The notes: a model not told the origin generated them from the sequence alone. A DNA stretch of 32,000 nt from Candidatus Kuenenia stuttgartensis (GCF_900232105.1 NZ_LT934425.1:1440001-1472000), one strand, 5' to 3'; shown: positions 3,618-30,842, counted from the first letter of the stretch. A program made the numbers and translations.

Positions 3618-3690
3618 GTCTCCTCCTGCATTTTATAACAAAATAATGATTCCTCTGTATTTTTCATTGTTCTGAAAAAACAAAAAATTA

Positions 3691-3912
3691 GGTCACAATT
3701 TAGCTTTCCGAAAGATATGCTCTATAGCCTTACAATTTGTGCTTTATAAACAATGTCGTATAAATTAGGCCTTCAGCAACTTTCTCGATGTAGCGCGAAG
3801 TGCCACTTCGCTCGCGACGAAGCAATCGCTTCGTCCTACAAGCTTGAAATTCCTATACGTTAAGTTCAGCACGGACAAACAGCGTTTGTCCGTGCCATCC
3901 TATTATCAATTT
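3691..3912. repeat. Degenerate member of the palindromic intergenic element family (element D), in the nuoF-fdhA spacer
   Basis: The arm-like GGTCACAATTTAGCTTTCCGAAAG (3691-3714) matches the element C arm at about 20 of 25 positions. Internal hairpins: 3795-3811 (GCGAAGT/ACTTCGC), 3817-3836 (GACGAAGC/GCTTCGTC) and 3869-3895 (GCACGGACAAAC-AGC-GTTTGTCCGTGC). TATCAATTT (3904-3912) is shared with the sequence abutting the right arm of element C (21308-21316). Confidence 0.55.
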
Positions 3913-3924
3913 AAATTCCACATT

Positions 3925-5603: not shown

Positions 5604-5741
5604 AAATGTTGAATTTTAAATTCTGAATTCTGAATTAAAATTAATTTAATATTGTAACTGTTTAGTGTAATCTATTTAACTACCGAAGCACAACTCGCTT
5701 CCGAAAAGTTGAATTCTGAATTAATTTAAAATTTAACATTT
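5604..5741. repeat. AT-rich inverted-repeat element (element E) in the nuoE-nuoF spacer
   Basis: AAATGTTGAATTTTAAATTCTGAATTC (5604-5630; TGAATT continues to 5636) matches the reverse complement of 5711-5741 (AAATGTTAAATTTTAAATTAATTCAGAATTC) with one mismatch and a 4-nt gap. It contains TTCTGAA heptad copies and a partial family arm, ATTGTAACTGTTTAGTG (5651-5667). Confidence 0.55.
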
Positions 5742-6913: not shown

Positions 6914-7122
6914 CTATAGTCAAACAAATCTGGTTTTAGAAACTTAGCGGTAATTTGGCTTTTTGAAAAATGGAGGCGAAGCATTTGCCTGCGTACAGTA
7001 TAACTCCTTCAACATAGCGGGGTTGGCGTATGTACAGCATTTTACGTCTCTCTCTTATATGCAGGCAAATGCTTCGCCCCTACCCAGAATGTTTTTCGAA
7101 AAACAGATTTATTAGACTATAT
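6914..7122. repeat. Nested palindromic intergenic element (element F)
   Basis: Outer arms: TATAGTCAAACAAATCTGGTTTTAGAAAC (6915-6943) against the reverse complement of GTTTTTCGAAAAACAGATTTATTAGACTATA (7091-7121), about 80 percent identical. Inner family arm: GGTAATTTGGCTTTTTGAAAAAT (6949-6971). Core: an 18-bp perfect stem, GGCGAAGCATTTGCCTGC (6975-6992) with GCAGGCAAATGCTTCGCC (7061-7078). Confidence 0.7.
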
Positions 7123-14229: not shown

Positions 14230-14328
14230 GTAGGGGGCGAAGCATTTGCTATAAATTGACATAAATGCGTTCATACCCAAACGGACAAATGCTTCGCCCC
14301 CTACTTTTTAAAAAAACTAAATTGTTAC
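14230..14328. repeat. Palindromic element G: a 19-bp perfect stem followed by a family arm
   Basis: GTAGGGGGCGAAGCATTTG (14230-14248) pairs with CAAATGCTTCGCCCCCTAC (14286-14304) across a 37-nt loop. It is followed by TTTTTAAAAAAACTAAATTGTTAC (14305-14328), which has 2 mismatches to the consensus arm. The stem sequence is nearly identical to the element F core. Confidence 0.75.
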
Positions 14329-14353
14329 GGTTCCATTGGTATAAAGTACAACC

Positions 14354-17300: not shown

Positions 17301-19189
17301 CCGATAAGCGGGCAGATGGTAAATGGCGTATGCAGATACAATGATGAGACGTCATCAACAAACCCTCTCGAACGGATGCCAGTGGTTGATGGTATCTGTT
17401 TTGAGCCGTCGCCTGTTATTTGCAATTCAAATTGCGGTTCATTCTTCAACAACCGGGGCAGTATTTTCATCGCGAAAAAGGCATACCCCTGCATATTAAA
17501 GAGATTGTCACCGATAGCAAAAAGGGGTGAGCCGGAATACGTATTATTCAGGCGCTGCGGCTCATAAGCCATAGGTATATAAAACGGCTTTGTTTGTCCC
17601 GTATTGGCCTTTATGCAATTGCGCTCAAATACAGAAAGTGCAATTGTGCCGTCAAACAGGTCATAATATTTGTATTCAGATTCATCCGCTGATAACTGCC
17701 GTTTGCTAAAGTAGTCTATATTGGCAATTTGTTCATAATTCTGGTTTTTGAAATCCACCAAAAGGGCATCGGCCATTTTCCTGTTGAGAGTCACAAGGTC
17801 ATGAACCTCTATCAGTTTTATACGTGACGAAAAGGCGGTATTCCTTACAAGACCGGCATAATATGAATAGTTGACCCAGACAACATCAGGATCGAATGAA
17901 CGGCATACCTCGCTCAATGCATGGCATAAACCCGGTGGTATAAATATGCCCGATTCGACAAAATTCTTTTTCAGCGCCTTCTTTTCTTCGATGTATTTCT
18001 TATCACTGGCTGTACCGTCATACAGAAACAGTTGTATACGCCGTTTCCTCATTTCGGAAACAAGTTGTTCTGGCCATTCATTGTCAGGATAGATCCTTGT
18101 AGCAAACAGGGTAATATCGTAGTTCATACTGTAGAACGCCTCGACAATGGAAAGCGTACGACGATGCGCTCCGGTTCTGGGCGGAAACGGATTATGAGGC
18201 AAAAAGATCAACACCTTCCCGTTCCGTTTTTCATGACTCTTGAACGGCCATATCCGCAGGTGTCTTCTTCCAAGCCATTTTCTGTCAGCGGTAACAGGAC
18301 GCATCCCCGTTTCCCGCAGGGGAGGGTCCTGAAGTGTAAGGGCGTCTTTCCACTTTTCAACAAACTTAATCCTGTTGATTTCAAGATATTTTTTGAAACC
18401 GGAAGAAGTATCGTCTCCTGCGGTTATTGATTCATGATGTATAACAACCGAATTGGGTGCATACATAACGGTATATCCTTTTTCCCTTGCCGCAAAGCAC
18501 AAATCGGTTTCTTCATAATAGGCAGGACTATACCGATGGTCCATCCCCCCGATATTTTCAAATAGCTCCTTTCGTACAAGCAGGCATGCCCCGGAACAAT
18601 AGTCAACCTCACAGGCATCATTGAAACCCTCTTCGTACGGATTGCCTCCGCGCCCGAAGTTTGAGCCGCTGCCGTCACAGAATATAATGCCCCCGGCTTC
18701 CTGCAAACGTCCATCAGGGTATACAAGTTTTGATCCCACAATCCCGATTTTGCTGTCGGATTCTGCAAGTTTTACCATCGATTCCAGCCAGCCTGGTTGT
18801 GGTTCAGTATCGTTGTTAAGAAACACCAGATAATTGCCTTTGGCAATCTTTGCACCCTGATTGCAGGCACTAGTGAAGCCCATGTTTTCCTGATTAGTAA
18901 TGACCTCCAGCTTATTTATCATGCGCTTTAAAAACTCCGGAGTTTCATCAGAGGATGCATTATCTACTACAATAATCTCATAGATATCTCCAGGAGTATT
19001 TTTGAATAACGCTTCAAGACATTTCTTTGTATATTCGACTTTATTGAAAACCGGGATGATAATGGAGGAGATAACGCCGGATTTATTGCCTTGCGGGGAA
19101 TGACACCTTATTGACTTTTTATCATTCTGATGGAGTGAAACGGATGAAGAATTCATGAGAACCTTTTTGTTTTCATTGTTATTTGTCAT
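14354..19189 (-). CDS. Multidomain glycosyltransferase: GT2 + GT-B (GT4-like) + GT9-like + GT4, with C-terminal TPR repeats
   Basis: 1611-aa uninterrupted ORF. Residues ~40-290 are GT2 (IIIPVFNKVEYTKKCL, VVDNASSDET, FLNNDT, YYEETDLC). Residues ~320-720 are a GT-B fold ending in a Glycos_transf_1-like stretch (ESMAYGVPAIA...GVNGF). Residues ~740-1010 are heptosyltransferase-like (GDALYLTAIVMEIKKRYPHIRIYL). Residues ~1075-1460 are GT4 (GEGFGLPILEAMACGIPAIVTNGG). Residues ~1500-1611 are TPR (AYNNLGLVYA..., FNNLGVLYYKK...). Confidence 0.85.
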   Translation of the reverse strand: MTNNNENKKVLMNSSSVSLHQNDKKSIRCHSPQGNKSGVISSIIIPVFNKVEYTKKCLEALFKNTPGDIYEIIVVDNASSDETPEFLKRMINKLEVITNQENMGFTSACNQGAKIAKGNYLVFLNNDTEPQPGWLESMVKLAESDSKIGIVGSKLVYPDGRLQEAGGIIFCDGSGSNFGRGGNPYEEGFNDACEVDYCSGACLLVRKELFENIGGMDHRYSPAYYEETDLCFAAREKGYTVMYAPNSVVIHHESITAGDDTSSGFKKYLEINRIKFVEKWKDALTLQDPPLRETGMRPVTADRKWLGRRHLRIWPFKSHEKRNGKVLIFLPHNPFPPRTGAHRRTLSIVEAFYSMNYDITLFATRIYPDNEWPEQLVSEMRKRRIQLFLYDGTASDKKYIEEKKALKKNFVESGIFIPPGLCHALSEVCRSFDPDVVWVNYSYYAGLVRNTAFSSRIKLIEVHDLVTLNRKMADALLVDFKNQNYEQIANIDYFSKRQLSADESEYKYYDLFDGTIALSVFERNCIKANTGQTKPFYIPMAYEPQRLNNTYSGSPLFAIGDNLFNMQGYAFFAMKILPRLLKNEPQFELQITGDGSKQIPSTTGIRSRGFVDDVSSLYLHTPFTICPLIGGTGQQIKIVESMAYGVPAIALANIAASSPIEHGVNGFIAANEDEFENYVMMLFRDRDLCRRMGEAARKKIEAAFSKTMLTGTIQNIITYLKAEKCMKRLNQFKSSFNEQFWNRNYERASTLLIRCAPAIGDALYLTAIVMEIKKRYPHIRIYLSGNHVVEAVFRGHQAVSAFVPDIVNKISVPKTDIIIDYNNVIANLPEYYNGIGLMDIMANIAGVRLGQRGIIYTITPEEREWAQKEVRTFSPSGGMLIGLHFTTDKDIKRSYPHGEKVISLLSRQFDGARFILFGKDPLAKENPLVYDCTSRQISLRNQIAISSHCNAFITIDSAFFHIGHNFCCKPTLLICGLTSPELLGNPATECFTPIRNEALPCLSCYWRTKCNIECMNNLLPEVIVDAFKKMMNDSPKKLKWQPSLETVEAGISPNEDYEQTIIRNLVSKKKPIRLVLDDPHRVLPEYVEEWNGVVIKRDSGKAAAGKPGIVWEGSQFVTHSLALINRELCLQLIRDGYEVSLLPYEPDQFGTEADPRFKALAECINKPLTGKIDIHVRHHWPPNLTPPQEGHWVIIQPWEFGSLPEEWVRVFSAQVDEMWVPSKYVRQVYIESGVPAERVVVIPNGINPERFHPDAKPYQLTTKKKFRFLFVGGTIYRKGIDLLLQAYLETFKDSDDVCLIIKDMGGNSFYAGQTFREEIERIRQAKGVPEVEYIEKILSEDEIVGLYTACNAFVHPYRGEGFGLPILEAMACGIPAIVTNGGACLDFCNENNSLLVQANKKISKEKRVGNRPTVDNLWFYEVDINDLKAKMRYAYEHPGEIRTLGKEISPDIRNNWTWEMSANKIKERIEYLRKVPVLRYTKDNLCRQTSSISGEMELLNKADGLFQKGAYQESIDAYKRAIEYHPVFFDAYNNLGLVYASIDKPDEAISILKKAIELNGKEASVFNNLGVLYYKKKMHGEARRCFEKALAIDAGYKEARQNLEKVAKLLS

Positions 19190-19198
19190 TAAATTTGC

Positions 19199-19455
19199 TG
19201 TAACACTTTAGTTTTTTGAAAAATTCCAGGGAAAAATGATAACCCCAAAGGGGTAATATGATTATAGAAAACACAGTAAAACCACGCCTAATCCCGAAGG
19301 GATGACATAATCGCCACGGTTAGGTGTTTTATGAAAGGTAACACAGATAAAATTATATCACCCCTTCGGGGTTAATTACGGGTTTTTCGCATAATTTCTA
19401 TAATCATTTCATCCCTTCGGGATTATTGGGATTTTTCAAAGAACTAAAATGTTAC
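19199..19455. repeat. Nested palindromic element A, with family arms and four mini-hairpins
   Basis: Left arm: TGTAACACTTTAGTTTTTTGAAAAAT (19199-19224). Right arm: ATTTTTCAAAGAACTAAAATGTTAC (19431-19455), with 2 mismatches over the 25 nt. Interior hairpins: ACCCC-AAA-GGGGT (19242-19254), ATCCC-GAA-GGGAT (19291-19303), ACCCC-TTC-GGGGT (19360-19372) and ATCCC-TTC-GGGAT (19411-19423). Their flanks mirror each other (ATGATTATAGAA / TTCTATAATCAT). Confidence 0.85.
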
Positions 19456-19465
19456 CTTTTTCTTG

Positions 19466-20458
19466 TTAGAGCAGTTTTTCAATTTCTTCCAAATTCTTCG
19501 ATATTTTCACCGCTTCCTTTATTGACTCCAGCTTCTCTATCGCTGCTATTTTCCCGATACGCTTCAGAAGCCTTAGACCTTCAACTCCGTACTTTAGTTC
19601 CAAACCTATCTCTATCGCCTCTATCAGACCCTCCATCCTCCCCTTCCTCTCACCTTCCGCTCTGCCTTCCATCCTACCGGCTATTTTGCCCTTTTCTATT
19701 AATCTGGCTGCTATTGTCATGCTTAATCTACCTCCTTCTTCCGATATCTCTTTTAGGGTATCTATTACCCTTTCTTCCTCTATATCCGACGCATAGTACA
19801 AATACCTGATCACACTTTCCAGAAACTTTAATCCTTCACCCTCTTCAAAATACTGCTTCCCTATTTCAAAGAATGCCTTTAGCTTGTCTCCCAGAATTTT
19901 GTCATTATATATGTTCCTCATTAATAACATGGTTATTTGAAGGGATACCCTTCTAAATACCTTGTCCTTTATTTCCTCGTTACTGTAGAAACTCAGATCA
20001 GTCAGCAGATATTCAAATTCCGGTATAAATCTAAAAAATACCTCGTCTATCCCTTCAAAATAGTCTCTGAATCGCCTGACTTTCCACGTCTCTTTGCCAT
20101 GATACAATATTACCGGAATTACCGGTATGAGCCTTTGCATCTGCTTGCTGTTTGCTGCCCATATCTTTAAAAGGTATTTCATCAACTGAAGATATGGACA
20201 TACTGCGGCATAACTCTTATGCTCAAATAAAAGGGTTATCCGGAGTTCTTTGTCTTTACAGAAACAGGTGTATACAATGTCTGAAAAATGTTCTTTGAGT
20301 TCCTCGTCGATATATGAGTTATTATCCTGTGTTAAAGTGGCTAAATCCAGCTTTTTTAAAATTTCCGGAGGAAACGTCCCGCTAAGAAAATCGATTGCAT
20401 TCTCCCGTATGGAAAATGTCTCTTTGAAGAATTTGTCGTGTGGGTTGAAAACCTACAT
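19466..20458 (-). pseudogene. Rpn-family PD-(D/E)XK recombination-promoting nuclease / putative transposase, with an in-frame TAG at codon 2
   Basis: The track ORF (19466-20185) starts at a TTG. The same frame stays open upstream to 20452 and reads VFNPHDKFFKETFS...HFSDIVYTCF...ITLLFEHKSY. That is the canonical Rpn N-terminus, including the D...E-x-K nuclease core. An ATG at 20458-20456 is preceded by AAGGGGGG 9 nt upstream and followed directly by TAG (20455-20453). Confidence 0.6.
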
Positions 20459-20462
20459 AAAA

Positions 20463-20490
20463 GTAACCCCCCTTAGTTTTTTCTGTAAAA
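20463..20490. repeat. Family-arm-like sequence abutting the Rpn gene start
   Basis: GTAACCCCCCTTAGTTTTTTCTGTAAAA shares GTAAC, the exact 10-mer TTAGTTTTTT and a trailing AAAA with the consensus arm TGTAACACTTTAGTTTTTTGAAAAAT. Confidence 0.45.
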
Positions 20491-20617
20491 GCCATTTTGC
20501 CACATGGATATCATCTCCTTTTCTATGCTTGCCTGTCTTGCCATTGTTTCACATTACACATATCATGTAAATATTGTCAATAGTCCAGATGTGACCCCAT
20601 TCTACCATGAGAGTAAA

Positions 20618-20642
20618 ATACCACAAGCAGGATGCTTGTGGT
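20618..20642. repeat. Isolated perfect hairpin: 11-bp stem with a GGA triloop
   Basis: TACCACAAGCA-GGA-TGCTTGTGGTA, inside a ~300-bp gap with no convincing ORF. The architecture and loop match the core hairpin of element C. Confidence 0.6.
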
Positions 20643-20765
20643 ACAATGTACAATTAGTTAACAAAAAATCGGGAATGCCCCTCCCCATTCTTAAGAAATG
20701 TTGCGTACCCAATAGGGAAAGGAAAAGCCTGATGTACCGACTTTGATCATGTGGAAAACTTTTAT

Positions 20766-21131
20766 TTATTTCAAAGTAACTGATGCTACCGTAATGCGAT
20801 TCTTCCCATGTTCATCCTGAATGTGTACGTTTATTATTTGTTTTTTGATATCCGGGTATAATTCAAGTTTTCTTTTTATCAATAAACGAAGGTCTTCTTC
20901 CACTGCTTTCAACATATCTTTTCCATTGGCAGGATTGAGCCTTTTCCATTCCTTCAGATATTTCTCTATTGCCTCTTCTCGTTTCTGTTCATTTAAGCAG
21001 GCTATGTTCCATGCGGTAGCAGCGCTATTTAAGAGTTGTTGCTTATGCTCAATATCTTCACCCAGCGAGAGGTATTCCCTTGCAAAATGCTCTACCATTT
21101 CAGAAATCTTTTCTTTTTTTCCTTCCTTCAA
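20766..21131 (-). CDS. Hypothetical protein
   Basis: 121-aa charged ORF with no low-complexity sequence. TTG start preceded by GAGGGGG 5 nt upstream. The alternative Met 12 (MVEHFAREYL) is possible. I recognise no family. Confidence 0.5.
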   Translation of the reverse strand: MKEGKKEKISEMVEHFAREYLSLGEDIEHKQQLLNSAATAWNIACLNEQKREEAIEKYLKEWKRLNPANGKDMLKAVEEDLRLLIKRKLELYPDIKKQIINVHIQDEHGKNRITVASVTLK

Positions 21132-21208
21132 TTTTTCCCCCTCTGTTTATGACGAACTGTTATCTGTTCCCCTTGTTTTTCCCTTGTTCTCTATAAGCCT
21201 TCAAAAAT

Positions 21209-21338
21209 TGTAACAATTTAGCTTTTTGAAAATATGTTGCAGTTTAGTTTTGGGTGGCACGGACAAACGGAGTTTGTCCGTGCCACCCATATTGAGCTAA
21301 AATATGTGTATCAATTTTCAAAAAACTAAAGTGTTACC
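21209..21338. repeat. Compact palindromic element C: family arms plus a 17-bp hairpin core
   Basis: Left arm: TGTAACAATTTAGCTTTTTGAAAAT (21209-21233). Right arm: ATTTTCAAAAAACTAAAGTGTTACC (21314-21338). Core: GGGTGGCACGGACAAAC-GGA-GTTTGTCCGTGCCACCC (21252-21288). Confidence 0.85.
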
Positions 21339-21435
21339 AAAAATTCATCCTGTCAGCATACTCATTTACCATCCCTGCATTAAATACTTCTTCTTTTCAT
21401 AGGTATCAAGCACTAAAGCACAATCTTCCCAATGA

Positions 21436-21681
21436 ATGGGCTTAATGGTTGTTCTTAGCCATTCAGCGCTTGCAACATTCAAAAAATGGTTTTACAGATT
21501 TGACGCTGAAGAATGTGGCAGACAAATTGAGGAAGACATCCTTGCCTGGAAACTGGACAAATTAGCCGAAAAATCTATTGGAGATCAACATGGGGCAGGA
21601 GTAAAGAAACAAAATGTTTTTAATTGTATATATGGAAATAATAAATACTATTATCTTGCCGTAAACAAAATGAATTGCTGA
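21436..21681 (+). CDS. Hypothetical small protein (weakly supported)
   Basis: 81-aa ORF with no recognisable motif and no clear SD. It lies between element C and the IS. It could be non-coding. Confidence 0.25.
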   Translation: MGLMVVLSHSALATFKKWFYRFDAEECGRQIEEDILAWKLDKLAEKSIGDQHGAGVKKQNVFNCIYGNNKYYYLAVNKMNC

Positions 21682-21744
21682 TTATTATTCTTTTGGATTC
21701 AAATAGTTACGAATATTGTGGCTGTTATCAAACGTCTCTTATTT

Positions 21745-23629
21745 AGTGTCTGAACGAAAACTATCTTTTTTATGCAAGATTCTTTCTCTGAGCAAATTTA
21801 AATTTTTTTAAATTGCCCCTTTTTCAACTTTTTCTTCTACGCTTTAATCTATGATACGGTTGTTTTATTCATTTCCCTCGTTTTTACCATCTTTTCATGT
21901 TCTCCGGACATACTATCCCTCATGGATTTTTATTCGAGAGTGTTTTTACGCTGCCTTACGTACTGTTTCTTTTTCTTCCCGGACTTTCTTCTGCAATATA
22001 CTCCCCATCGTGTGCAAATTTGCCGCCAGCACTCCTAATGCGCAGTATCTTTTAAATCCTTCTATCCCTTTGTCTAAGCATCTGTCCAGCCCATGATGTT
22101 CTAACCGGTTAATATCTGACTCCACCGCTGAGTGCTTGTGCCTGAGTTTTTTAAATGTACTCTCCGATTCTTCTTCTGTCTCCGCCTTATTCCTTTTTCC
22201 TTTCTTCGGTATGATCACTTTCGGTATATAAAGACTTATCAGTTCCTTGTATTCCTTCTTGTAAAAACCCTTGTCTGCACTTATACTTTCTATCTCTTCT
22301 TCACCAAACAAATTTAATAGCTTGTCTGCTAACGGCAGAATTAACGCCACATCTGCTTCTTTTTCCACTACTTGGTGATATCCGATAAACCCCCATTGGT
22401 CACTTGCTATCACCAGATTGTGGCCTAATTCCACCCTCTTATTCGCCTTCCCTTTACTCAACCATTCTGTGTGTGGTTCAAACAGTGAATATACCTTTTC
22501 CCCTACCGGTATTTGCTCTTCCTTGATAATTCTCCTCTCTACCAAATCTCTGTGCTTCTCCAGCATCTGATAAAAATATTCCATCGACTCCAATGCCTCT
22601 TTCTGCATTTCTTCCGCACCCGTTGTTAATATTTTTTCGTACACCGCTATTATGCTCGCACCTATCTTCTCACTTAATCTCTTTGCTAATCCAAGATACT
22701 CTTTTACTTGCTTCTTAACCGCCTCCTCTTTCTTGTTTCCACCACCACTTGCCGCTTTCGAACTACTCCTCATCAGACTCTTTAGCTCTTTCCTCCAATT
22801 CTTTACCTTTCTCCATCCTTTCCCGTTCAATACCCCTCCCTCTATAAATGCCTCTATCCCATCAAGGCACTTCCTACCCGCATCCCACAGCAAATTCATG
22901 TCCGTAGGAAAATGTACGTTTGTCTCCACCACATACGTATCCGTCTTTATGCGGAGCTTCTCCTCCCGTCCGTTCTTTGCCAGCCTCTGGCCTGCCTTTA
23001 CCACCACATCATTAATCTTCCCCAACGTCTCCTCATCGAGCAATCTTACGTTATCCTTGATGCTTTGCAGCGAATACTTCTTACCCCTCCCAAATACGGT
23101 ATCTACTCCCATTATCTGACGAATCAGACTATGGTGATTCACCATATCTTCCAACCTGTCATAATCCGCATCTAATCCCAATCTCACCACTCCTATTACC
23201 ATTATCTGCCATAACTCCATACCATTACGCCCTGTCTCTTTCTTCCCACCCTTTACCTTTGCTTCCAATACCCTGAATACTTCCTCTCGTAATTCCTCTG
23301 TAACAAATATGTATTGTAATGCCCTCAAAATCGGCGCTAACTCATCCCTGCTCTTTTCGGGAATTTCTACCTCTGATATTGGTGTGCTTCCAAGTCTCCT
23401 TTGCGGCTCGAATCTTTTTCTCATGGCGTGGCAGTTCTCCTTTTGATGACTCTGTTTTTCTGATGTTTTGGGCGAATGTTTGTCTCTTTTCACCCCTTGG
23501 TACCCTCGCTTCCCTTATTCTACGCCCTAAGTTTAACATCTACTCACTATACTTTCAACCCTTCATGCAGATACTTTCAACCTCCTTTACCACGTATTTC
23601 AAGGCTTACAGCGTTTTCGTTCAGACACT
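21745..23629 (-). mobile_element. Insertion sequence (about 1.9 kb) with 17-bp perfect terminal inverted repeats and a 4-bp target duplication
   Basis: AGTGTCTGAACGAAAAC (21745-21761) is the exact reverse complement of GTTTTCGTTCAGACACT (23613-23629). Both ends are flanked by ATTT (21741-21744 and 23630-23633). One long transposase ORF lies inside. Confidence 0.85.
21946..23493 (-). CDS. DDE-type transposase; family not assignable by eye (IS4/IS5-superfamily or ISNCY-like)
   Basis: 515-aa ORF fills the TIR-bounded element. It is basic and charged, as transposases usually are. The true start may be the internal Met (MRKRFEPQRRLG). Confidence 0.75.
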   Translation of the reverse strand: MKRDKHSPKTSEKQSHQKENCHAMRKRFEPQRRLGSTPISEVEIPEKSRDELAPILRALQYIFVTEELREEVFRVLEAKVKGGKKETGRNGMELWQIMVIGVVRLGLDADYDRLEDMVNHHSLIRQIMGVDTVFGRGKKYSLQSIKDNVRLLDEETLGKINDVVVKAGQRLAKNGREEKLRIKTDTYVVETNVHFPTDMNLLWDAGRKCLDGIEAFIEGGVLNGKGWRKVKNWRKELKSLMRSSSKAASGGGNKKEEAVKKQVKEYLGLAKRLSEKIGASIIAVYEKILTTGAEEMQKEALESMEYFYQMLEKHRDLVERRIIKEEQIPVGEKVYSLFEPHTEWLSKGKANKRVELGHNLVIASDQWGFIGYHQVVEKEADVALILPLADKLLNLFGEEEIESISADKGFYKKEYKELISLYIPKVIIPKKGKRNKAETEEESESTFKKLRHKHSAVESDINRLEHHGLDRCLDKGIEGFKRYCALGVLAANLHTMGSILQKKVREEKETVRKAA

Positions 23630-23668
23630 ATTTAGTATTTTTTAATATCCGTGATAATCCCTGTTTAA

Positions 23669-23746
23669 TGGTCGGGGCGACTGGATTTGAACCAGCGACC
23701 TCGACGTCCCGAACGTCGCGCTCTAGCCAAGCTGAGCCACGCCCCG
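23669..23746 (-). tRNA. tRNA-Pro (anticodon CGG), CCA encoded
   Basis: The minus strand folds as a cloverleaf: acceptor CGGGGCG/CGCCCCG, D arm GCTC..GAGC, anticodon stem CGACG/CGTCG with loop TTCGGGA, variable AGGTC, T arm GCTGG-TTCAAAT-CCAGT, then discriminator A and CCA. Total 78 nt. Confidence 0.9.
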
Positions 23747-23761
23747 CACCATTTATATATA

Positions 23762-25479
23762 ACCTAAATCCTGCAAACGATTTTCGCAATGCGAAAATCA
23801 GTATTTTCCACTACCAAGATTGGCAAAAAGCGATAACAGATATCCGTTTTTTAGCAATTGTGGTAGCGCTATTGTACTACTTTAAACAAAAAGACATGGG
23901 AAATTGTCGGAAACGTGCTCTCTGATGCAATGAAAATCAAGATAGGGATGTACTGTCTCCATCTGCGGTATACTTACCACTCTCAAAAGACTAAAAAAAC
24001 GAAATACAACGTCGGTTTTCTACTGAAAAACTACATCCAGTGACATGCGTTCCCACTTTTCCCATTCCTCCTGATGGAGAAATTTCTCCGGCAATTTTAA
24101 TGTCATCTGCCGGCTTCTCTCCACCAGTTTCCCTGCCACACGGATTAACCACAGTCTCATCGTCTTTACTTCCCACTGTTGTATCACTCCACCACTGAGC
24201 AATCCCATCCACTTCAAAAGATTATACGCTAACACCGCACACTGAAATAGCGCAGCATTGGCCAAAAATTCACCCGTACGTATGTGCCCCGCATTCATCT
24301 GTCCTTTACTCTCTTCTATCAAAGTCTCGCAGGTAGCCCTCTTTCCATAACAACGATGCGCTTCCATCGGACTTAACCGCTCCGTTGTAACGTAACAAAA
24401 ATACTCATACACGGACACTTCTACTAATTTCTTTTCTCTTTTGACCAATTGCCGCACTGCCACAAAACGTCTCGCACGATCCCACCCTGCACATCGATAC
24501 CAAAATTCAGCCTGTTCCCATCCTGGCTCCCCTTTCACCTCATTCCATTTCTGCCCTTCAAGCAATCCTTCCAGATTCTTCAGCTTTACCTTAATCAGAT
24601 ATCCCGCCAATATTGACTCAAGGTATTCAAGTAATTCTCCGGTAAAAAAACCGCTGTCTCCCCGAAATACCACCCTTACCCCCTTATTCATGTACGCCAT
24701 ACATTCCTTCATGAACTCTACTACTCCGTTACTCGTGTAGGCGCTTCCACAGCGGAACCAACTATGTAATACCTCCTTTGTTTCTGCAATAAATGCCATT
24801 AAGGGATGATACGCCTTCTGCCCCTTCTTGTGCGGATTATATCCTACCTCTGCACCCTCCTGTTTCCCATATACACCATCTACGGTAGAATCAACATCTA
24901 TCCATACTTCGCAAAGAGCACTCCTGAGTTTATGGCCTGATCTCACCGCACGCTTCCATATCTTTCCCCTAAACCGGTGGATCACCCCCGTCAGTTCCAC
25001 TATATCTCCCTGACTCGCCAGCTTCATAATACGTCCTATCGTAGTATCTACAGGTACCTCTTTCCACCCGGACATCTTCTTCAATACCTCATCTGTACAC
25101 ACCTTCATCACCTCTACCATCGATGTCGCCCCTGCTATCAACCCTATCACTACCATTTGTACCGCATCGATAAACTGATACCGGGCATTTGCTCCACGAT
25201 CCTTATGGACCGCTTCATGGACTCTCTCCCGGAACATCAGCTTACCCATAAAATTCAATACCGGTAAAAGCCCTGCATGTACCGTTAAGCCTTTCCCGCT
25301 CATCTCTGCCTTGATTTTCGGTTGTCTTTTGCTGTATTTTTTTGCTATATTCTTCATCGAAATGGTGAATCTCCTTTCAGGTGTTTTTTGTTATCAATAT
25401 ACCGCCGAATACCTTGGAAATCCTACCATTTCAATCCTATTCCTGCAACAAGGCTTTGCCTTGTTTGCAGGATTTAGGT
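23762..25479 (-). mobile_element. IS1380-family-like insertion sequence (about 1.7 kb)
   Basis: 17-bp perfect TIRs: ACCTAAATCCTGCAAAC (23762-23778) and GTTTGCAGGATTTAGGT (25463-25479). Size and transposase fit IS1380. Only a 3-bp ATA repeat flanks it, which is not decisive in AT-rich flanks. Subterminal hairpins lie at 23779-23799 and 25442-25471. Confidence 0.8.
24020..25357 (-). CDS. IS1380-family DDE transposase
   Basis: 445-aa ORF. The N-terminal GKGLTVHAGLLPVLNFMGKL resembles the ISEcp1-type NLTSNAGL motif. Length is typical of the family. Confidence 0.7.
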   Translation of the reverse strand: MKNIAKKYSKRQPKIKAEMSGKGLTVHAGLLPVLNFMGKLMFRERVHEAVHKDRGANARYQFIDAVQMVVIGLIAGATSMVEVMKVCTDEVLKKMSGWKEVPVDTTIGRIMKLASQGDIVELTGVIHRFRGKIWKRAVRSGHKLRSALCEVWIDVDSTVDGVYGKQEGAEVGYNPHKKGQKAYHPLMAFIAETKEVLHSWFRCGSAYTSNGVVEFMKECMAYMNKGVRVVFRGDSGFFTGELLEYLESILAGYLIKVKLKNLEGLLEGQKWNEVKGEPGWEQAEFWYRCAGWDRARRFVAVRQLVKREKKLVEVSVYEYFCYVTTERLSPMEAHRCYGKRATCETLIEESKGQMNAGHIRTGEFLANAALFQCAVLAYNLLKWMGLLSGGVIQQWEVKTMRLWLIRVAGKLVERSRQMTLKLPEKFLHQEEWEKWERMSLDVVFQ

Positions 25480-25489
25480 ATAACATTGC

Positions 25490-25516
25490 GATTATTGGAA
25501 TTTTTTCAAAAAACTA
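25490..25516. repeat. Truncated family arm beside the IS1380-like element
   Basis: GATTATTGGAATTTTTTCAAAAAACTA matches the right end of element A, GATTATTGGGATTTTTCAAAGAACTA (19421-19446), at about 24 of 27 positions. It lacks the terminal AAGTGTTAC. Confidence 0.6.
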
Positions 25517-25542
25517 CTCCAGACATGAGTTTGTAAGAAGTT

Positions 25543-27783
25543 TTATTTTACCTCAAGCACTATTTTTTTTACAGCAATATTTCCTGCAAGATCGAAGACA
25601 TTGATGACAACGGTATAGTTGCCCCGAAGTAGAGGTTCTGTTGTAATTCGAAAGGATTCCCGCAGGGAATCAAAAATCCCGTCAACGGGATTGGCGGGCA
25701 GCCATTCCTGCCCATCGACAGCATATTGAACCTTTACTATCTCACTGTATTCGTCCTGCGCAGAGCCGGTGATAATACCCCTTCCCTCCGGGGTAACATC
25801 AACCGTTATTGGCCCGGCGATTATAGGTTTTGAATTATCAATTATCAAGGGCTGCTGCAATGTTGCTTCAGAACTAAGTGCTGTTTCCGGCGGATTATCC
25901 GGATAATCGCCGGCTTCTAATTTGATTTGATACCTTCCGTCCGGCAGGCGCAGGGTATCCCATGTATACGAACCCTTGTTTTGATTACTTTTAGTAAGTA
26001 TTTTCCATGTATACTCGTCCATGCCTTTGTAGGAAACCGTAATCTGCAATGTGTCGTTATTTGGATCCTCTATTTCCCAAAGAATCTTTTTCTGTGCAAT
26101 TTCATGGTGTGGTTTTTGGGAGGATGGCAATTGAGACGTTGCTTCTGCTAAAGAACCATTTTTTGCTTGTGAAGGTTTTTGCGGCGAAGGAATATCCTTT
26201 TCTATCTCAAACATAATAATATTTGGCGGCTGGTTTTTCGGCAGATAGGACAAAGAGACCCTCTTTAAAGAAGGGGAGATTGCTGCATTTTCCGTTTGCA
26301 ATGTTGCCCTGTACTGAATAAAACGGGCAGGGGAATTTGTAATTTTTGCCCAAGGCGAGGTTCCGGACAATGACCAGTCACTCCAGGTTGCATCAGGTTT
26401 TTCAGAATTTCCCGTTCTGGTGGCCATGGTAATTTTAGTCGATGGCGGTTCTGCGCATGACCATGAAATATTTCCCCATGACGACAGGGATGATGTATCC
26501 AATACATTCGAGAGGAATGTGCCGGATTTCTCATATGCCGGCAATATCTTATACACCCTTCCCTCATTTCCAGAACCGACGTATAATTCGTTACGGTCAG
26601 TAATCCGGCAACAAAGCAACTGTCCAACTTCTGCTGCCGCAATACGGATAAACGAGGCATCACTAAAAATTTTATATATAGCGGATTCATTTCCAGTAAC
26701 TACAAAAAGATTTCCTTCTGCATCAAACACCATATCGAAAATGAATGCCTGTTCTATCTCGAAAATTTTTTCCGCAAACCCTTCTTCAGTGATCTTGTAA
26801 ATATAATTTGGTTTAAACGGGCTTCCTATCGTTTTGTGTTGCAGTCCAGATCTCTGCGAAGGATGTGTTTTCTGTTGAATATATGCCGTTTTAGTAACAG
26901 TTAGTTCATCCGGAATATTAAGGTCCCAGGCTTTTCCCTCTTTGAATGGAGATGCAATTACCGTTGTTTCTCCGACGGTTTTTGCCATGGGTGATTTAGG
27001 CATTGCCATCTGTGTGCCCGACGCAGTACCCGCATATATATTGCCGGAATAATCAATGGCAAGACAATGTATTTCCTCCTCTTCCGCATCGTAAAGTACA
27101 TGAGCGTTCCCGTTGTTGTCTATTTTATATATAAGGCCATTTGGTTCTGTCGCTACATATATGTTATTGTTTTTATCAAGTACGACGTCTAAAAGATTTG
27201 TTTCCGGAGAATCGAAAAGAATATCCGGGCATCCTTCTGGTGAGATTTTAAACAACAGGCCTTCATCTCCTGTTGCCACAATGAGATTGAAATTGCTGTC
27301 TATTTCCATATCCCATATATAGGAAACGGGCAGGCTGCAAAATACCGAACATTCCCCTTCTTTGCTGATTTTATAGATTATGCCCCTTGGCGCAGTACCG
27401 GCGTATATATTACCGTCTTTGCCGGCAATAATACTTTGCACATATAATTCCGGCGACCTGAAGATCTCTGCCGCTCCGGCATTGTCTTTTATGGAGTAAA
27501 CCGTTGCCGGGTCTCCGGCGCCAATGAATATGCGGCTTTGTTCATCCTGGGCGATTGACCATACGTAGGTATTATCAATGCCCTGAATGGTTTCTGTTTG
27601 AGGGGAAAGAGATAGCTCCCCTTTGCTGTGGATAGAAATGTTCTGATAGTCGCCTTTTTTAAAATCATACTCAGTGGATTGTGACCATGTATGGGTGGTC
27701 GTAGCGTTTGCAAAGGGGATCGATAGAGAGGAAAAAAGGAATATGGCTATGACTTGATTGCACGATGATAGAATCGTATTCAT
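25543..27783 (-). CDS. Secreted beta-propeller repeat protein with a C-terminal Ig-like domain
   Basis: The Met at 27783 gives a signal peptide (MNTILSSCNQVIAIFLFSSLSIPFANA) and begins 4 nt after the upstream stop. The blade-like motif recurs: NIYAGTAPRGIIYKI, NIYVATEPNGLIYKI, NIYAGTASG, NLFVVTGNESAIYKI, ELYVGSGNEGRVYKI. The C-terminus reads GNYTVVINVFDLAGNIAVKKIVLEV. Confidence 0.75.
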   Translation of the reverse strand: MNTILSSCNQVIAIFLFSSLSIPFANATTTHTWSQSTEYDFKKGDYQNISIHSKGELSLSPQTETIQGIDNTYVWSIAQDEQSRIFIGAGDPATVYSIKDNAGAAEIFRSPELYVQSIIAGKDGNIYAGTAPRGIIYKISKEGECSVFCSLPVSYIWDMEIDSNFNLIVATGDEGLLFKISPEGCPDILFDSPETNLLDVVLDKNNNIYVATEPNGLIYKIDNNGNAHVLYDAEEEEIHCLAIDYSGNIYAGTASGTQMAMPKSPMAKTVGETTVIASPFKEGKAWDLNIPDELTVTKTAYIQQKTHPSQRSGLQHKTIGSPFKPNYIYKITEEGFAEKIFEIEQAFIFDMVFDAEGNLFVVTGNESAIYKIFSDASFIRIAAAEVGQLLCCRITDRNELYVGSGNEGRVYKILPAYEKSGTFLSNVLDTSSLSSWGNISWSCAEPPSTKITMATRTGNSEKPDATWSDWSLSGTSPWAKITNSPARFIQYRATLQTENAAISPSLKRVSLSYLPKNQPPNIIMFEIEKDIPSPQKPSQAKNGSLAEATSQLPSSQKPHHEIAQKKILWEIEDPNNDTLQITVSYKGMDEYTWKILTKSNQNKGSYTWDTLRLPDGRYQIKLEAGDYPDNPPETALSSEATLQQPLIIDNSKPIIAGPITVDVTPEGRGIITGSAQDEYSEIVKVQYAVDGQEWLPANPVDGIFDSLRESFRITTEPLLRGNYTVVINVFDLAGNIAVKKIVLEVK

Positions 27784-27787
27784 AATG

Positions 27788-29608
27788 TTATTTAACCAAT
27801 ACGTGTATGCTTTGTTTACCGTTAAGAACATATTTAGTCGGAACCTTAGTAATTATTTCCCCCATAAGAGGTCCGATGCCGCTTTGACCTACATTATTCA
27901 TAATAGAAAAAATGGATTGAGGAAGCGAAGGAAGACCTTCTCCTTTATAGGTTAACCCATTTTTAGAGAGAAGGACGCGTACAATGAGATTGTTGTTTCT
28001 TTCCATATCGCAGACGTCGTCCAAAAGCTGTTCAAAATTAACAGGCAAATGCCTACCTGCAGCCCTTCCCATATCCAATGATTTGCTGAATTTCGCATCG
28101 CATGCCGTAATCTCAAGAAGGTCACCGGGGAGGACGTCTTCCGGGATTTTGATCTGAATTGTCTTGTAAATATCGTTTCCGGTGTAAGGCTTTAGCAATA
28201 CGTCCAAAGATAATTCATCTCCCGGTCGTACATAGTTATTTCTTGCCTGAATTGCTTCGATAGACGCAGTTTGCCGCAAATTCAGGATGTTAATCTTCAG
28301 ATCAATCTCCTGAACGGTAATTTCCTGAAACTGATTGTTGATAACCATTGCAAAGCATTGTGCAATTTCGTCGATAGAGAACCATGTCTGGTTAAATTCA
28401 TAATAGCTGTTTTTTAATATCAGTGGTTTCTCATATCCGTCAATCTTTGCGAAAAGCTGTATGTCAACGCACCGTTCACCCAATTTTTTTTCGGTGGCGG
28501 CAACAGCGCCCTGAGCCGCCATTAAAACAAGCACCGGTGTGAGCAGTTTGTTGTCCACAATTTCGAAGCTATATTCAATGTTTTGCGTGCCGTCAACTGC
28601 TATGCGACAGGGAATCATGCGGGAAAATGTGCCAATAGTACCGGCAACTCCCGATCTCCTGTCCTGATTAATCTGTCCGATTATTTCAACCGGCGACGCC
28701 ATTTTTACTGAATTGGAGTGACTGCTGAGGATTGCAAATACATGCGCCGTTGCCATCGGAATGTTCGTGGTTCCCGCATGCAAAAAGGGGTGTCCGAAGG
28801 CAAGTACCTGATCGCCATCAACATACGTAACCGTACCCACTACAGCGGCATTCAGGTCTCCTTTGATCAGCACTGCGGCTACCGATGCGCCTGGAACCAG
28901 CCTGGTTGGGTATGTCGCCGATGTTGCTGCATAGCTTCCGCCTTGCAGGGGGTACAAATTGTACGCGCTAAAAAAAGGGTTCATTTCTTCCAATGCCCTG
29001 CCTGAAAACCCTGATACTATTAAAGGAGAAATTATTGGCGCAATTTTTATCCCATGTCCCGGATGGTTTATCGCTTCATCCTGAATTTTTGGCAATGATG
29101 TTTGCGGTATTATTTCACCGGTATTTGCGGGCGGTAATGGAAGCTCCCATTCGGGCGAGGGGAATAATTTACTGCCATTTTCTTCAGGGAGATCGAACAA
29201 TGTACTTTTCATCTCATTTATTGGCGACACACCGGCAATCGCTTCTTTTGAAAAACTCCACCCATAGGCGACGGCGCCAATCAAACGATTATCTATGTAA
29301 ACAGGGCTTCCGCTCATACCTGCAATGATGCCGGTTTCTTCAAGAGGACCACCTGTCATTTTGATCAGAATAAGATCTGCCTTTGTTTCCCAATTTTTTA
29401 AGACGCCTAAAACCTCGACGCTGAAATTTTCAATACTATCACCGGAAAATACCGTCTTACCAAACCCTTTCATCCCGGGCTTGATCTCGTCGATACCCAT
29501 GAAACTTTCCTGTGCAAGGAGGGATTGAGGATTGGATAACGAAGCAAAAAAGGCAGATGCCGCAAAAAAAACGAATAAAAAATACCTGTTCAACGATAGA
29601 GATTTCAT
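27788..29608 (-). CDS. Secreted SpoIVB-type (peptidase S55-like) serine peptidase domain protein
   Basis: 606-aa ORF with a signal peptide (FLFVFFAASAFFASL). The N-terminal domain reads GFGKTVFSGDSIENFSVEVLGVLKN...LILIKMTGGPLEETGIIAGMSGSPVYIDNRLIGAVAYGW, with a GMSGSPVY serine motif that I recall from S55 domain proteins. Confidence 0.6.
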   Translation of the reverse strand: MKSLSLNRYFLFVFFAASAFFASLSNPQSLLAQESFMGIDEIKPGMKGFGKTVFSGDSIENFSVEVLGVLKNWETKADLILIKMTGGPLEETGIIAGMSGSPVYIDNRLIGAVAYGWSFSKEAIAGVSPINEMKSTLFDLPEENGSKLFPSPEWELPLPPANTGEIIPQTSLPKIQDEAINHPGHGIKIAPIISPLIVSGFSGRALEEMNPFFSAYNLYPLQGGSYAATSATYPTRLVPGASVAAVLIKGDLNAAVVGTVTYVDGDQVLAFGHPFLHAGTTNIPMATAHVFAILSSHSNSVKMASPVEIIGQINQDRRSGVAGTIGTFSRMIPCRIAVDGTQNIEYSFEIVDNKLLTPVLVLMAAQGAVAATEKKLGERCVDIQLFAKIDGYEKPLILKNSYYEFNQTWFSIDEIAQCFAMVINNQFQEITVQEIDLKINILNLRQTASIEAIQARNNYVRPGDELSLDVLLKPYTGNDIYKTIQIKIPEDVLPGDLLEITACDAKFSKSLDMGRAAGRHLPVNFEQLLDDVCDMERNNNLIVRVLLSKNGLTYKGEGLPSLPQSIFSIMNNVGQSGIGPLMGEIITKVPTKYVLNGKQSIHVLVK

Positions 29609-29782
29609 GCGGAAACTCTACCAAATTTAACAATTTATTGTCAAGCTATAAAAGAAGTTGAAATACCCCGATTAAGCATTTAAACTATACTCTCACATTA
29701 TAATCTATTCAAAGCACAGCAAAACCGCAATCATAAGTTAGGTTGGATTTTAAAAGATATAAACCCAACGGCATTCATTTTT

Positions 29783-29851
29783 ACCCGCCCCTCTAACCCC
29801 TCCCAGGAGGAGAATAGACAAGTCCCCTCTTAGGAGGGGTTAGGGGTGGGT
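29783..29851. repeat. C-tract / G-tract long hairpin next to element B
   Basis: ACCCGCCCCTCTAACCCCTCC (29783-29803) pairs with GGAGGGGTTAGGGGTGGGT (29833-29851). This is a 19-bp pairing with one G-T wobble and a 2-nt bulge. Confidence 0.6.
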
Positions 29852-29876
29852 TTGTTTATTGCTTGATTAAAAATAT

Positions 29877-30176
29877 TGTAACACTTTAGTTTTTTGAAAA
29901 ATGTATTACCTATAAGCTCCGTAGGAGCAGCCTGTTTGTAGCAAAATAGAATATTATAACAGATCGTAGAGACAGGTTTGAAACCTGTCTCTGCAATTAG
30001 GAGCGACCTGTCTCTTGTAAATCCATATTAAACAGGTCTGCCTGAATACGGACAGGTCGCTCCTACGGAGCTATTTACCTTATTGAATTTTATTGCGCTA
30101 CAAACAGACTGCCCCTGACGGGGCTACATGGTATTTTTTCTATAACGGGAATTTTTCAAAAAACTAAAGTGTTACA
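29877..30176. repeat. Nested palindromic element B (300 bp) with perfect 26-nt arms
   Basis: TGTAACACTTTAGTTTTTTGAAAAAT (29877-29902) is the exact reverse complement of 30151-30176, and the left arm is identical to that of element A. Interior complementary pairs: 29915-29928/30059-30072 (14 bp), 29932-29942/30097-30107 (11 bp) and 30000-30012/30051-30063 (13 bp). Local hairpins lie at 29968-29992 (12-bp stem) and 30111-30124. Confidence 0.9.
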
Positions 30177-30209
30177 AAATATTGAAATTTATGAACGTAG
30201 ATTTATATT

Positions 30210-30842
30210 ATGCCTTGTAACACCTCCAAAATAACACAGATACTTGACGTCCGAAATCAAGACCTTTACTGGACATCTATTGAAATAGCTGCTAAAGCTT
30301 TGAGGAACGGCGGGATAGTGGCTTTCCCAACGGAGACCGTATATGGCCTGGGCGTTCATAAGGATAATCCAGAAGCTATCGAACGGCTTTATGAGGCAAA
30401 GAAGAGGCCTGCAGAAAAGAGGCTGACCCTGATGATTGCCGATATCGGGGAAGTGGAACTATACGCGGGCGCTGTTTCTGATGTGGCAAAAAGGTTGATG
30501 GAGTCTTTTTGGCCGGGTCCCTTAGCGATTATTTTTCCGCTGAAGGATGGCTCAGACATTTGCGTAAGATTGCCCGATAATGCCATCGCAAGAGACTTAA
30601 TCCGCACCGCAAATATTCCGGTAGCAACTACCAGCGCAAACACTTCAGGGCATCCGCCGTCAACGGATGCATCACAAGTAACGGCATATTTTAAGGATGA
30701 AATCGACTTCATACTGGATGGCGGACCAACACCATCACACGAGCCTTCAACGGTTGTCAAAATAAAAGATGGAGTATGTGAGGTCGTTCGGCATGGCATT
30801 ATTCCCGAAACAACTATTCGAAATTGTCTTAAAAAATATTGA
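30210..30842 (+). CDS. tsaC: L-threonylcarbamoyladenylate synthase (TsaC/YwlC/Sua5 family)
   Basis: 210-aa ORF with GGIVAFPTETVYGLG, FWPGPL and ATTSANTSG motifs typical of the YrdC/Sua5 domain. Confidence 0.88.
   Translation: MPCNTSKITQILDVRNQDLYWTSIEIAAKALRNGGIVAFPTETVYGLGVHKDNPEAIERLYEAKKRPAEKRLTLMIADIGEVELYAGAVSDVAKRLMESFWPGPLAIIFPLKDGSDICVRLPDNAIARDLIRTANIPVATTSANTSGHPPSTDASQVTAYFKDEIDFILDGGPTPSHEPSTVVKIKDGVCEVVRHGIIPETTIRNCLKKY

Follow-up and report, generated by a model that had tools for sequence, protein, structure and literature searches.

Results

Elements bracketed by a conserved arm

The stretch of DNA analysed here, hereafter the window, comprises 32,000 nucleotides of the anammox planctomycete Candidatus Kuenenia stuttgartensis (GCF_900232105.1 NZ_LT934425.1:1440001-1472000). 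Its genes are nearly all in minus-strand orientation; among them are an fdhA/nuoF/nuoE-like cluster, topA, a BatA-like gene, and genes for a 1611-aa glycosyltransferase, a YhgA-like protein and an S55 peptidase, together with two DDE transposases flanking a tRNA-Pro gene. A TopA identical to that of the window is encoded on CP049055.1 as well as on several further Kuenenia assemblies, whose loci match the window at 98.5-99.8% identity. The spacers between these genes harbour a dispersed family of elements bracketed by a conserved arm of about 25 nt. We consider with high confidence that an insertion sequence (IS) of the IS66 family has these arms as its terminal inverted repeats, and that the short elements they bracket are non-coding transposable elements of the miniature inverted-repeat kind (MITEs).

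The arm has the consensus GTAACAnTTTAGyTnTTTGAAAA and a single copy of it is not palindromic by itself. An earlier reading of the sequence alone (the original prediction) had described a 26-mer identical at 19199 and 29877. Both are indeed exact matches on the plus strand, and a third lies on the minus strand at 30151. The other reverse-complement arms that it listed were also recovered, with two mismatches at 21313 (previously placed at 21314), with three at 19431, and at 14304, all on the minus strand, while its forward variant at 21209 corresponds to a plus-strand copy found at 21208 in a 27-mer search. No comparable 26-mer match occurred in the shuffled window. Allowing up to eight mismatches, the 27-mer was found nine times in the window, against a mean of 0.24 in shuffles. 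When arm copies from the window and from other loci are aligned, conservation ends sharply at the outer G and directly past GAAAA.

The arm copies, the intact elements and the duplications of the 298-bp element are as follows (strand is given for the arm copies; the other features are unstranded):

3690 (+), 6945 (+), 14304 (-), 19198 (+), 19431 (-), 21208 (+), 21313 (-), 29876 (+), 30151 (-): 27-mer copies of the arm
29878-30175: intact 298-bp MITE (300 bp in the original prediction), with perfect arms at 29878-29902 and 30151-30175
29870-29877: left 8-bp target-site duplication AAAATATT of the 298-bp MITE, from flank comparison and empty sites
30176-30183: right 8-bp target-site duplication AAAATATT of the 298-bp MITE, from flank comparison and empty sites
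21210-21337: intact 128-bp MITE (previously 130 bp), with arms at 21210-21233 and 21314-21337
19200-19455: older 256-bp MITE (previously 257 bp), with arms at 19200-19224 and 19431-19455

The three inverted arm pairs around cores of differing length are therefore real (about 258, 130 and 300 bp by the earlier measure). The window holds these three intact copies, non-coding and 128-298 bp in size, and three decayed ones described below. The 298-bp MITE lies upstream of two genes, 34 bp from the start codon of a Sua5/YrdC-like gene (30210) and 270 bp from that of the S55-peptidase gene (29608); folded as single-stranded DNA it reaches -75 kcal/mol (z -13.8). The core of the 128-bp MITE is a single long hairpin, GGGTGGCACGGACAAAC...GTTTGTCCGTGCCACCC, and the whole element folds at -38.6 kcal/mol (z -10.2). 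The 256-bp MITE (fold z -7.4) occupies the entire spacer from the YhgA-like stop codon (19466) to the glycosyltransferase start (19189), and its left and right arms differ at three positions. Both the 128-bp and the 256-bp MITE were found in all Kuenenia strains examined.

Arm pairs duplicate an 8-bp target

The original prediction had proposed searching related genomes with the 26-mer and tabulating arm pairing and flanking duplications. A scan with the query GTAACANTTTAGYTNTTTGAAAA, using one genome per species, matched at least 120 stretches, so that the arm is found well outside the window. Among the matches listed are assemblies of Brocadiaceae, Desulfobacterales, Thermodesulfobacteriota, Syntrophaceae and Sumerlaeota, and in these matches the arms occur mainly as inward-facing inverted pairs 26-400 bp apart. 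Our sample of 93 inverted arm pairs (the window plus loci L007-L126) was then used to compare flanks. The flanking 8-mers agree at 7 or more of 8 positions exactly at the element boundary in 56 of the 93 pairs, against only 0-3 pairs when the register is shifted by 1-3 bases. In the window, two of the three elements have perfect 8-bp duplications, namely 29878-30175 and 21210-21337, the latter with CAAAAATT at 21202-21209 and 21338-21345. The reconstructed targets are AT-rich and roughly symmetric (S-A-W-W-W-T-T-B).

The possibility that insertion is targeted beside hairpins was rejected: 60-nt flanks fold at -9.0 kcal/mol versus -10.3 kcal/mol in controls 600 nt away (p = 0.07, in the wrong direction), so that the flanks are no better folded than controls and merely more AT-rich. 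A GC-rich inverted repeat, ACCCGCCCCTCTAACCCCTCC...GGAGGGGTTAGGGGTGGGT, does lie at 29783-29854, about 20 bp left of the insertion site of the 298-bp MITE, and similar hairpins stand just outside MITEs in the Brocadia loci L012 and L040; in the general test, MITE flanks were not enriched in hairpins.

Filled and empty sites between strains

The comparison of strains for filled and empty sites that the original prediction had also proposed was carried out on K. stuttgartiensis assemblies, and both states were seen for the 298-bp element. The spacer between the Sua5-like and S55-peptidase genes measures 601 bp in the window, L132 and L133, and 294 bp in L131 and L134-L140. The 298-bp element is present in L132 and L133, and the short alleles of L131, L134, L136 and L140 are without exactly 29878-30175 plus one target copy. 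Their empty site holds a single GAAATATT and reads ...GATTAGAAATATTGAAATTC..., in flanks that are 99.6-99.9% identical to the window. Nearby, other sites hold more copies of the same 298-bp subfamily, with 92-96% identity. One of them, L132:5919-6216, just past the high end of the window, is a second polymorphism, this time between two K. stuttgartiensis lineages, since it is absent from L131 (6517-6527). In clustering, the 298-bp core groups with that of a copy in Kuenenia sp. Bin_40 (L009:619-919), which occupies another site. Orthologous sites are thus found both filled and empty, and elements of this family have been recently mobile in K. stuttgartiensis. The view of a dispersed family of mobile-looking intergenic elements is borne out.

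The same arms bound a full-length IS66-family IS

In contigs of Desulfobacterota type, ISs of 2.35-2.37 kb are bounded by the same arms. In a deltaproteobacterial metagenome-assembled genome (MAG), arms 2369 bp apart (L095:3753-6121) bracket a DruA-like open reading frame (ORF) of 296 aa (L095:3843-4733; PF14236, E = 1.2e-37) and an IS66 DDE transposase (PF03050, DDE_Tnp_IS66, E = 3.7e-37). The transposase scores 245 bits on the NCBIfam IS66 family equivalog NF033517, whose cut-off is 180, and is less than 30% identical to annotated IS66-family transposases on plasmids. A second copy with the same layout, L127:2034-4398 (2365 bp), lies on a 29-kb contig, with an FTHFS gene on one side and crcB on the other, and is flanked by a perfect 8-bp duplication, CAATATCT. 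Partial IS copies adjoin arms at contig ends in four further MAG loci. Furthermore, 56 metagenomic loci out of the 80 that code for the transposase have the two arms, spaced 2346-2373 bp, and 62 of the 66 near-full-length copies retain an intact DruA-like ORF (loci L141-L220).

The DruA-like gene (PF14236, formerly DUF4338, named for the Druantia defence protein) is placed upstream of the IS66-type transposase gene, whose start it overlaps; in L127 it occupies 2136-3014. No literature tying DUF4338 to IS66 was found. Two further arrangements were observed at these loci: L053:4128-4705 is an internally deleted IS in which a DruA fragment is fused to the right end, a possible intermediate on the way to a MITE, and at L070:7188-7236 two left arms stand in direct tandem before the DruA-like gene.

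IS66 elements have been described with inverted repeats of 20-30 bp that start with GTAAGCG and with 8-bp direct repeats (PMC11946415), and both GTAAGCG... and GTAACCG... ends are reported (PMC12888890). The arms studied here fall within that length range, start with 5'-GTAA and are flanked by 8-bp target duplications, and their full-length relatives pass the thresholds of both the NCBIfam IS66 equivalog and Pfam DDE_Tnp_IS66. They differ from the canonical family in reading GTAACAnTTTAG... where GTAAGCG... is usual, in having one upstream DruA-like gene where tnpA, tnpB and tnpC are canonical, and in that the window elements themselves are non-coding. The original prediction had held that the combination of conserved arms and variable cores matched no nameable element, and that its case would fall if the arm proved to be the terminal repeat of a catalogued element. 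Since the same arms bound full-length IS66-family ISs in other public genomes, this is in substance what was found, and the elements can be named.

The short elements have the usual attributes of bacterial MITEs. They are small (128-298 bp here), non-coding, multi-copy (the 298-bp class is also in L131, L132 and L009) and intergenic; they end in inverted repeats flanked by duplicated target sites, can fold back strongly, and fill sites in some strains that are empty in others. Among the MITEs with nothing but the terminal repeats in common with a parent IS are the IS982-related MITE of Cardinium (PMC9769881) and, in Neisseria, the Correia elements. What sets the present family apart is its IS66 parent family, the unusually large number of unrelated core classes per end (32 among 89 elements), and one end being common to Planctomycetota, Desulfobacterota-type and Sumerlaeota assemblies. 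Identity of the terminal repeats with those of full-length ISs, 8-bp duplications, amplification of subfamilies and precise filled and empty sites were all observed directly.

The course of events that these data suggest is one in which an IS66-type DDE transposase, supplied in trans, would bind both ends, which begin 5'-GTAAC. The element would then insert into an AT-rich, roughly symmetric 8-bp target (S-A-W-W-W-T-T-B), which would be duplicated on both of its sides. As only the ends would be needed for recognition, many unrelated non-coding interiors have been mobilised and amplified, each as a subfamily of its own.

Cores are strongly folded and travel with their arms

The original prediction had spoken of swappable, self-palindromic cargo between conserved arms. 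The folding part holds, as the whole elements of the window fold strongly as single-stranded DNA (values above) and so do cores stripped of their arms (median z -4.9, with 93% below -2). The conservation of the arms and the variability of the cores hold as well: among the matches listed, arm-free cores from 89 short elements group by sequence into 32 clusters, some of them multi-copy, of which the largest is a 150-bp Brocadia/Kuenenia class with 20 copies in the sample. The idea of swapping does not, in that cores are not exchanged at a locus. Because they cluster into multi-copy classes, each core class travels with its arms as a subfamily and amplifies with its own core.

Two origins for the cores were considered and rejected. 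Cores as internal-deletion remnants of a full-length IS were discarded for want of similarity to the interiors of the L095 and L127 copies. Hairpin modules (GGCACGGACAAAC..., GGGCGAAGCATTTGC...) as an independent family inserting into arm pairs were discarded as well: in Kuenenia loci almost all of these modules adjoin an arm or an arm remnant, which makes them components of intact or decayed MITEs.

Consistent self-folding of the core is the sole feature here that goes beyond a textbook MITE, and it may help transposition or reflect how these MITEs arise. A bolder, joint proposition combines two parts: that core folding is a mechanistic need of the DruA-associated IS66 subgroup (for example for a fold-back, cruciform or single-stranded intermediate joining the ends) or the mark of a distinctive fold-back birth of MITEs, and that Brocadiaceae carry the MITEs alone, with no cognate IS resident, and owe their mobilisation to a transposase that is divergent or was acquired transiently. 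Taken as a whole we find this doubtful.

Observations that weigh against an IS66 parent

Several results speak against the IS66 attribution. No full-length IS with these arms was found in Brocadiaceae loci by tblastn of TnpC and DruA against all loci, and a metagenome pattern scan for the Brocadiaceae-type left end returned nothing. A protein-guided metagenome scan for such an IS was negative or uninformative about the organism, as was an all-against-all comparison of solo-arm interiors, and none of the ten closest full-length representatives (representative-library search and cluster names) matched Brocadiaceae. Every full-length copy seen carries the Desulfobacterota-type arm TTTAGCnnTTTGAAAR and not TTTAGTTTTTTGAAAA; the respective variants are TTTAGCnnTTTG in full-length copies and TTTAGTTTTTTG in Brocadiaceae MITEs. 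An IS66-family transposase gene, KSMBR1_3038, is reported to be expressed in K. stuttgartiensis MBR1 (PMC7438415) and is a possible source of the transposase. We infer that the transposase source acts, or recently acted, within Kuenenia itself. If mobilisation does take place in the genome, a DruA-like and TnpC pair bounded by GTAACAnTTTAGTTTTTTGAAAA would be expected.

The remaining points concern duplications and cores. The 8-mers flanking the 256-bp MITE agree at only 5 of 8 positions (AATTTGCT / CTTTTTCT), and with its diverged arms this makes the element look older. Flanks agree at 7 or more of 8 positions in only 7 of 52 full-length ISs on short metagenomic contigs (mostly 2-3 kb). We assume that this shortfall stems from chimeric assembly of a collapsed multi-copy repeat, because some longer contigs (L168, L184) carry perfect duplications. 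Lastly, neither of the two full-length ISs tested (L095, L127) has an interior significantly similar to the cores, and since no interior sequence is shared the cores are not simple deletion derivatives of these copies; an internal-deletion origin is not required of MITEs that share only terminal repeats with their parent.

Alternative explanations

The elements could also be host-maintained repeats similar to the repetitive extragenic palindromic (REP) sequences and bacterial interspersed mosaic elements (BIME) of enterobacteria, in which case the arms would be sites for host proteins (IHF- or gyrase-like) or mRNA-stabilising stems, spread by a REP-associated tyrosine transposase (RAYT) type of enzyme or by recombination and not by a DDE transposase. 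The likeness is tangible: enterobacterial REP/BIME are dispersed, intergenic, made of palindromic modules and sometimes inside operons, and the elements here are strictly intergenic and hairpin-rich, have strongly folding cores and in some cases lie inside apparent operons (the fdh cluster; the YhgA-like/glycosyltransferase spacer). Yet REP sequences are short imperfect palindromes that go with RAYT (Y1) transposases and leave no target duplication, whereas our elements have long terminal repeats that are not palindromic singly, 8-bp duplications exactly at their boundaries, ends that also bound a transposase-encoding IS, and precise presence/absence polymorphism, the empty site holding one target copy. 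The REP/BIME explanation is already contradicted as far as origin is concerned, and we hold it to be very improbable; of the resemblance to BIME/REP or MITE systems noted in the original prediction, the MITE half alone survives. No RAYT-type gene was reported among the main ORFs of the window, to which the search was confined. Exaptation of individual copies is possible.

The very negative fold z-scores could also be expected of structured non-coding RNA genes, with the arms as a closing stem and the cores as variable functional domains. However, no element reaches an Rfam gathering threshold, the cores of different classes are unrelated, a 25-bp perfect duplex with target duplications is the signature of a transposon, and the elements are not oriented consistently to the genes beside them (at 14304 and at 19431, the copy faces the 3' end of an opposite-strand gene). 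The Rfam search suggested by the original prediction gave no family for arms or cores: at the gathering threshold only the tRNA-Pro was found, and E-value scans added sub-threshold matches to generic miRNA-precursor hairpin models. A known RNA family was therefore rejected, and RNA genes at large strike us as extremely improbable. We give hardly any more credit to the arm as a conserved promoter or operator motif whose inverted pairs merely mark divergent promoters. Forward copies do lie upstream of minus-strand starts (19199, 10 nt from an ATG; 21209; 29877) and the 30151 copy is 34 nt upstream of a plus-strand ATG, but this placement is uninformative because nearly all window genes are on the minus strand, and the copies at 14304 and 19431 point into gene 3' ends. 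Moreover, both computation and inspection show no sigma-70-like hexamer pair at usable spacing in the arm, an identical motif recurs across phyla and marks the bounds of an IS, and strains without the 298-bp MITE keep both neighbouring genes intact. The inconsistent orientation and the lack of a usable hexamer pair led us to reject this explanation in favour of MITEs with IS66-type ends.

Implications

The elements explain most of the previously unexplained long, hairpin-rich spacers of Kuenenia and Brocadia and ought to be masked ahead of any search for promoters or regulatory RNAs. Being polymorphic between near-identical K. stuttgartiensis strains, they can serve as strain markers. Because of this polymorphism, and because some stand within tens of bases of start codons, they are also candidate causes of strain-specific expression differences; judging from sequence, effects on neighbouring expression are plausible. 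The ATG of the glycosyltransferase gene is 10 bp from a MITE end (19189-19224) and that of the Sua5/YrdC-like gene 34 bp from another (30176-30210), and the latter gap is filled by a sigma-70-like match, TTGAAA-16-TATATT, at 30182-30209. For transposon biology, the data tie a MITE family to an IS66 subgroup with a DruA-like accessory gene, and reveal one end sequence common to phyla that co-occur in anoxic habitats. Searches returned nothing specific on MITEs of anammox bacteria or on IS66-derived MITEs, and within the searchable literature the family is apparently undescribed for anammox bacteria. Current understanding is not overturned: these are real but ordinary mobile DNA, widely shared among anaerobes.

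Decayed copies and neighbouring features

The degenerate copies and possible remnants are as follows (unstranded unless a sign is given):

3692-3900: decayed MITE in the fdhA-nuoF spacer, with a left-arm remnant at 3692-3716 (8 mismatches), internal hairpins and the right arm lost
6945-7116: decayed MITE with a long hairpin GGAGGCGAAGCATTTGCC...GGCAAATGCTTCGCCCCTAC; its left and right arms are both degenerate, the right one at about 7093-7116
14231-14330: truncated MITE, with a hairpin GTAGGGGGCGAAGCATTTGC...CAAATGCTTCGCCCCCTAC and the right arm at 14304-14330
5652-5666 (+): possible outer half-arm remnant TTGTAACTGTTTAGT, 13/15, marginal
25502-25516 (-): possible inner half-arm remnant, exact 15-mer TTTTTCAAAAAACTA, marginal, near 25490

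The first three are decayed or truncated MITEs because their hairpins stand beside arms. In the element at 3692-3900 one hairpin, GCACGGACAAAC...GTTTGTCCGTGC, lies at 3869-3900; the hairpin-beside-arm layout at 6945-7116 is also seen in the 150-bp Brocadia MITE class; and no left arm is recognisable at the locus of 14231-14330. Of the degenerate copies listed originally, those at 3691 and 6949 agree with the 27-mer copies at 3690 (+) and 6945 (+), whereas 5651, 20463 and 25490 amount to only half an arm. The local alignment scores of these three are 11, 12 and 15 where the 95th percentile of the background is 10, and they may be element remnants, near noise level. Likewise, the claim that the elements fill the long spacers, including those within the fdh cluster, is true of fdhA-nuoF, with its left-arm remnant at 3692 and hairpins to about 3900, but nuoF-nuoE holds only a half-arm.

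In the equivalent of window positions 927-5583, L003 (GCA_015075145.1) has fdhA and nuoF called as many short fragments, which looks like frameshift errors of the assembly and not biology. The YhgA-like (Transposase_31) gene at 19466-20185 encodes 239 aa in the window, 215-238 aa in some strains and 314-330 aa in L003, L004 and L131, and may be truncated or frameshifted in the window strain. Finally, the tRNA-Pro gene (23669-23746) is flanked by two unrelated DDE-transposase ISs, at 21748-23636 and 23764-25478, with ends GTGTCTGAACGAAAAC... and CTAAATCCTGCAAAC...; L131 and L134 lack both of these ISs, and the same flanks there enclose a stretch of about 114 bp with the tRNA.

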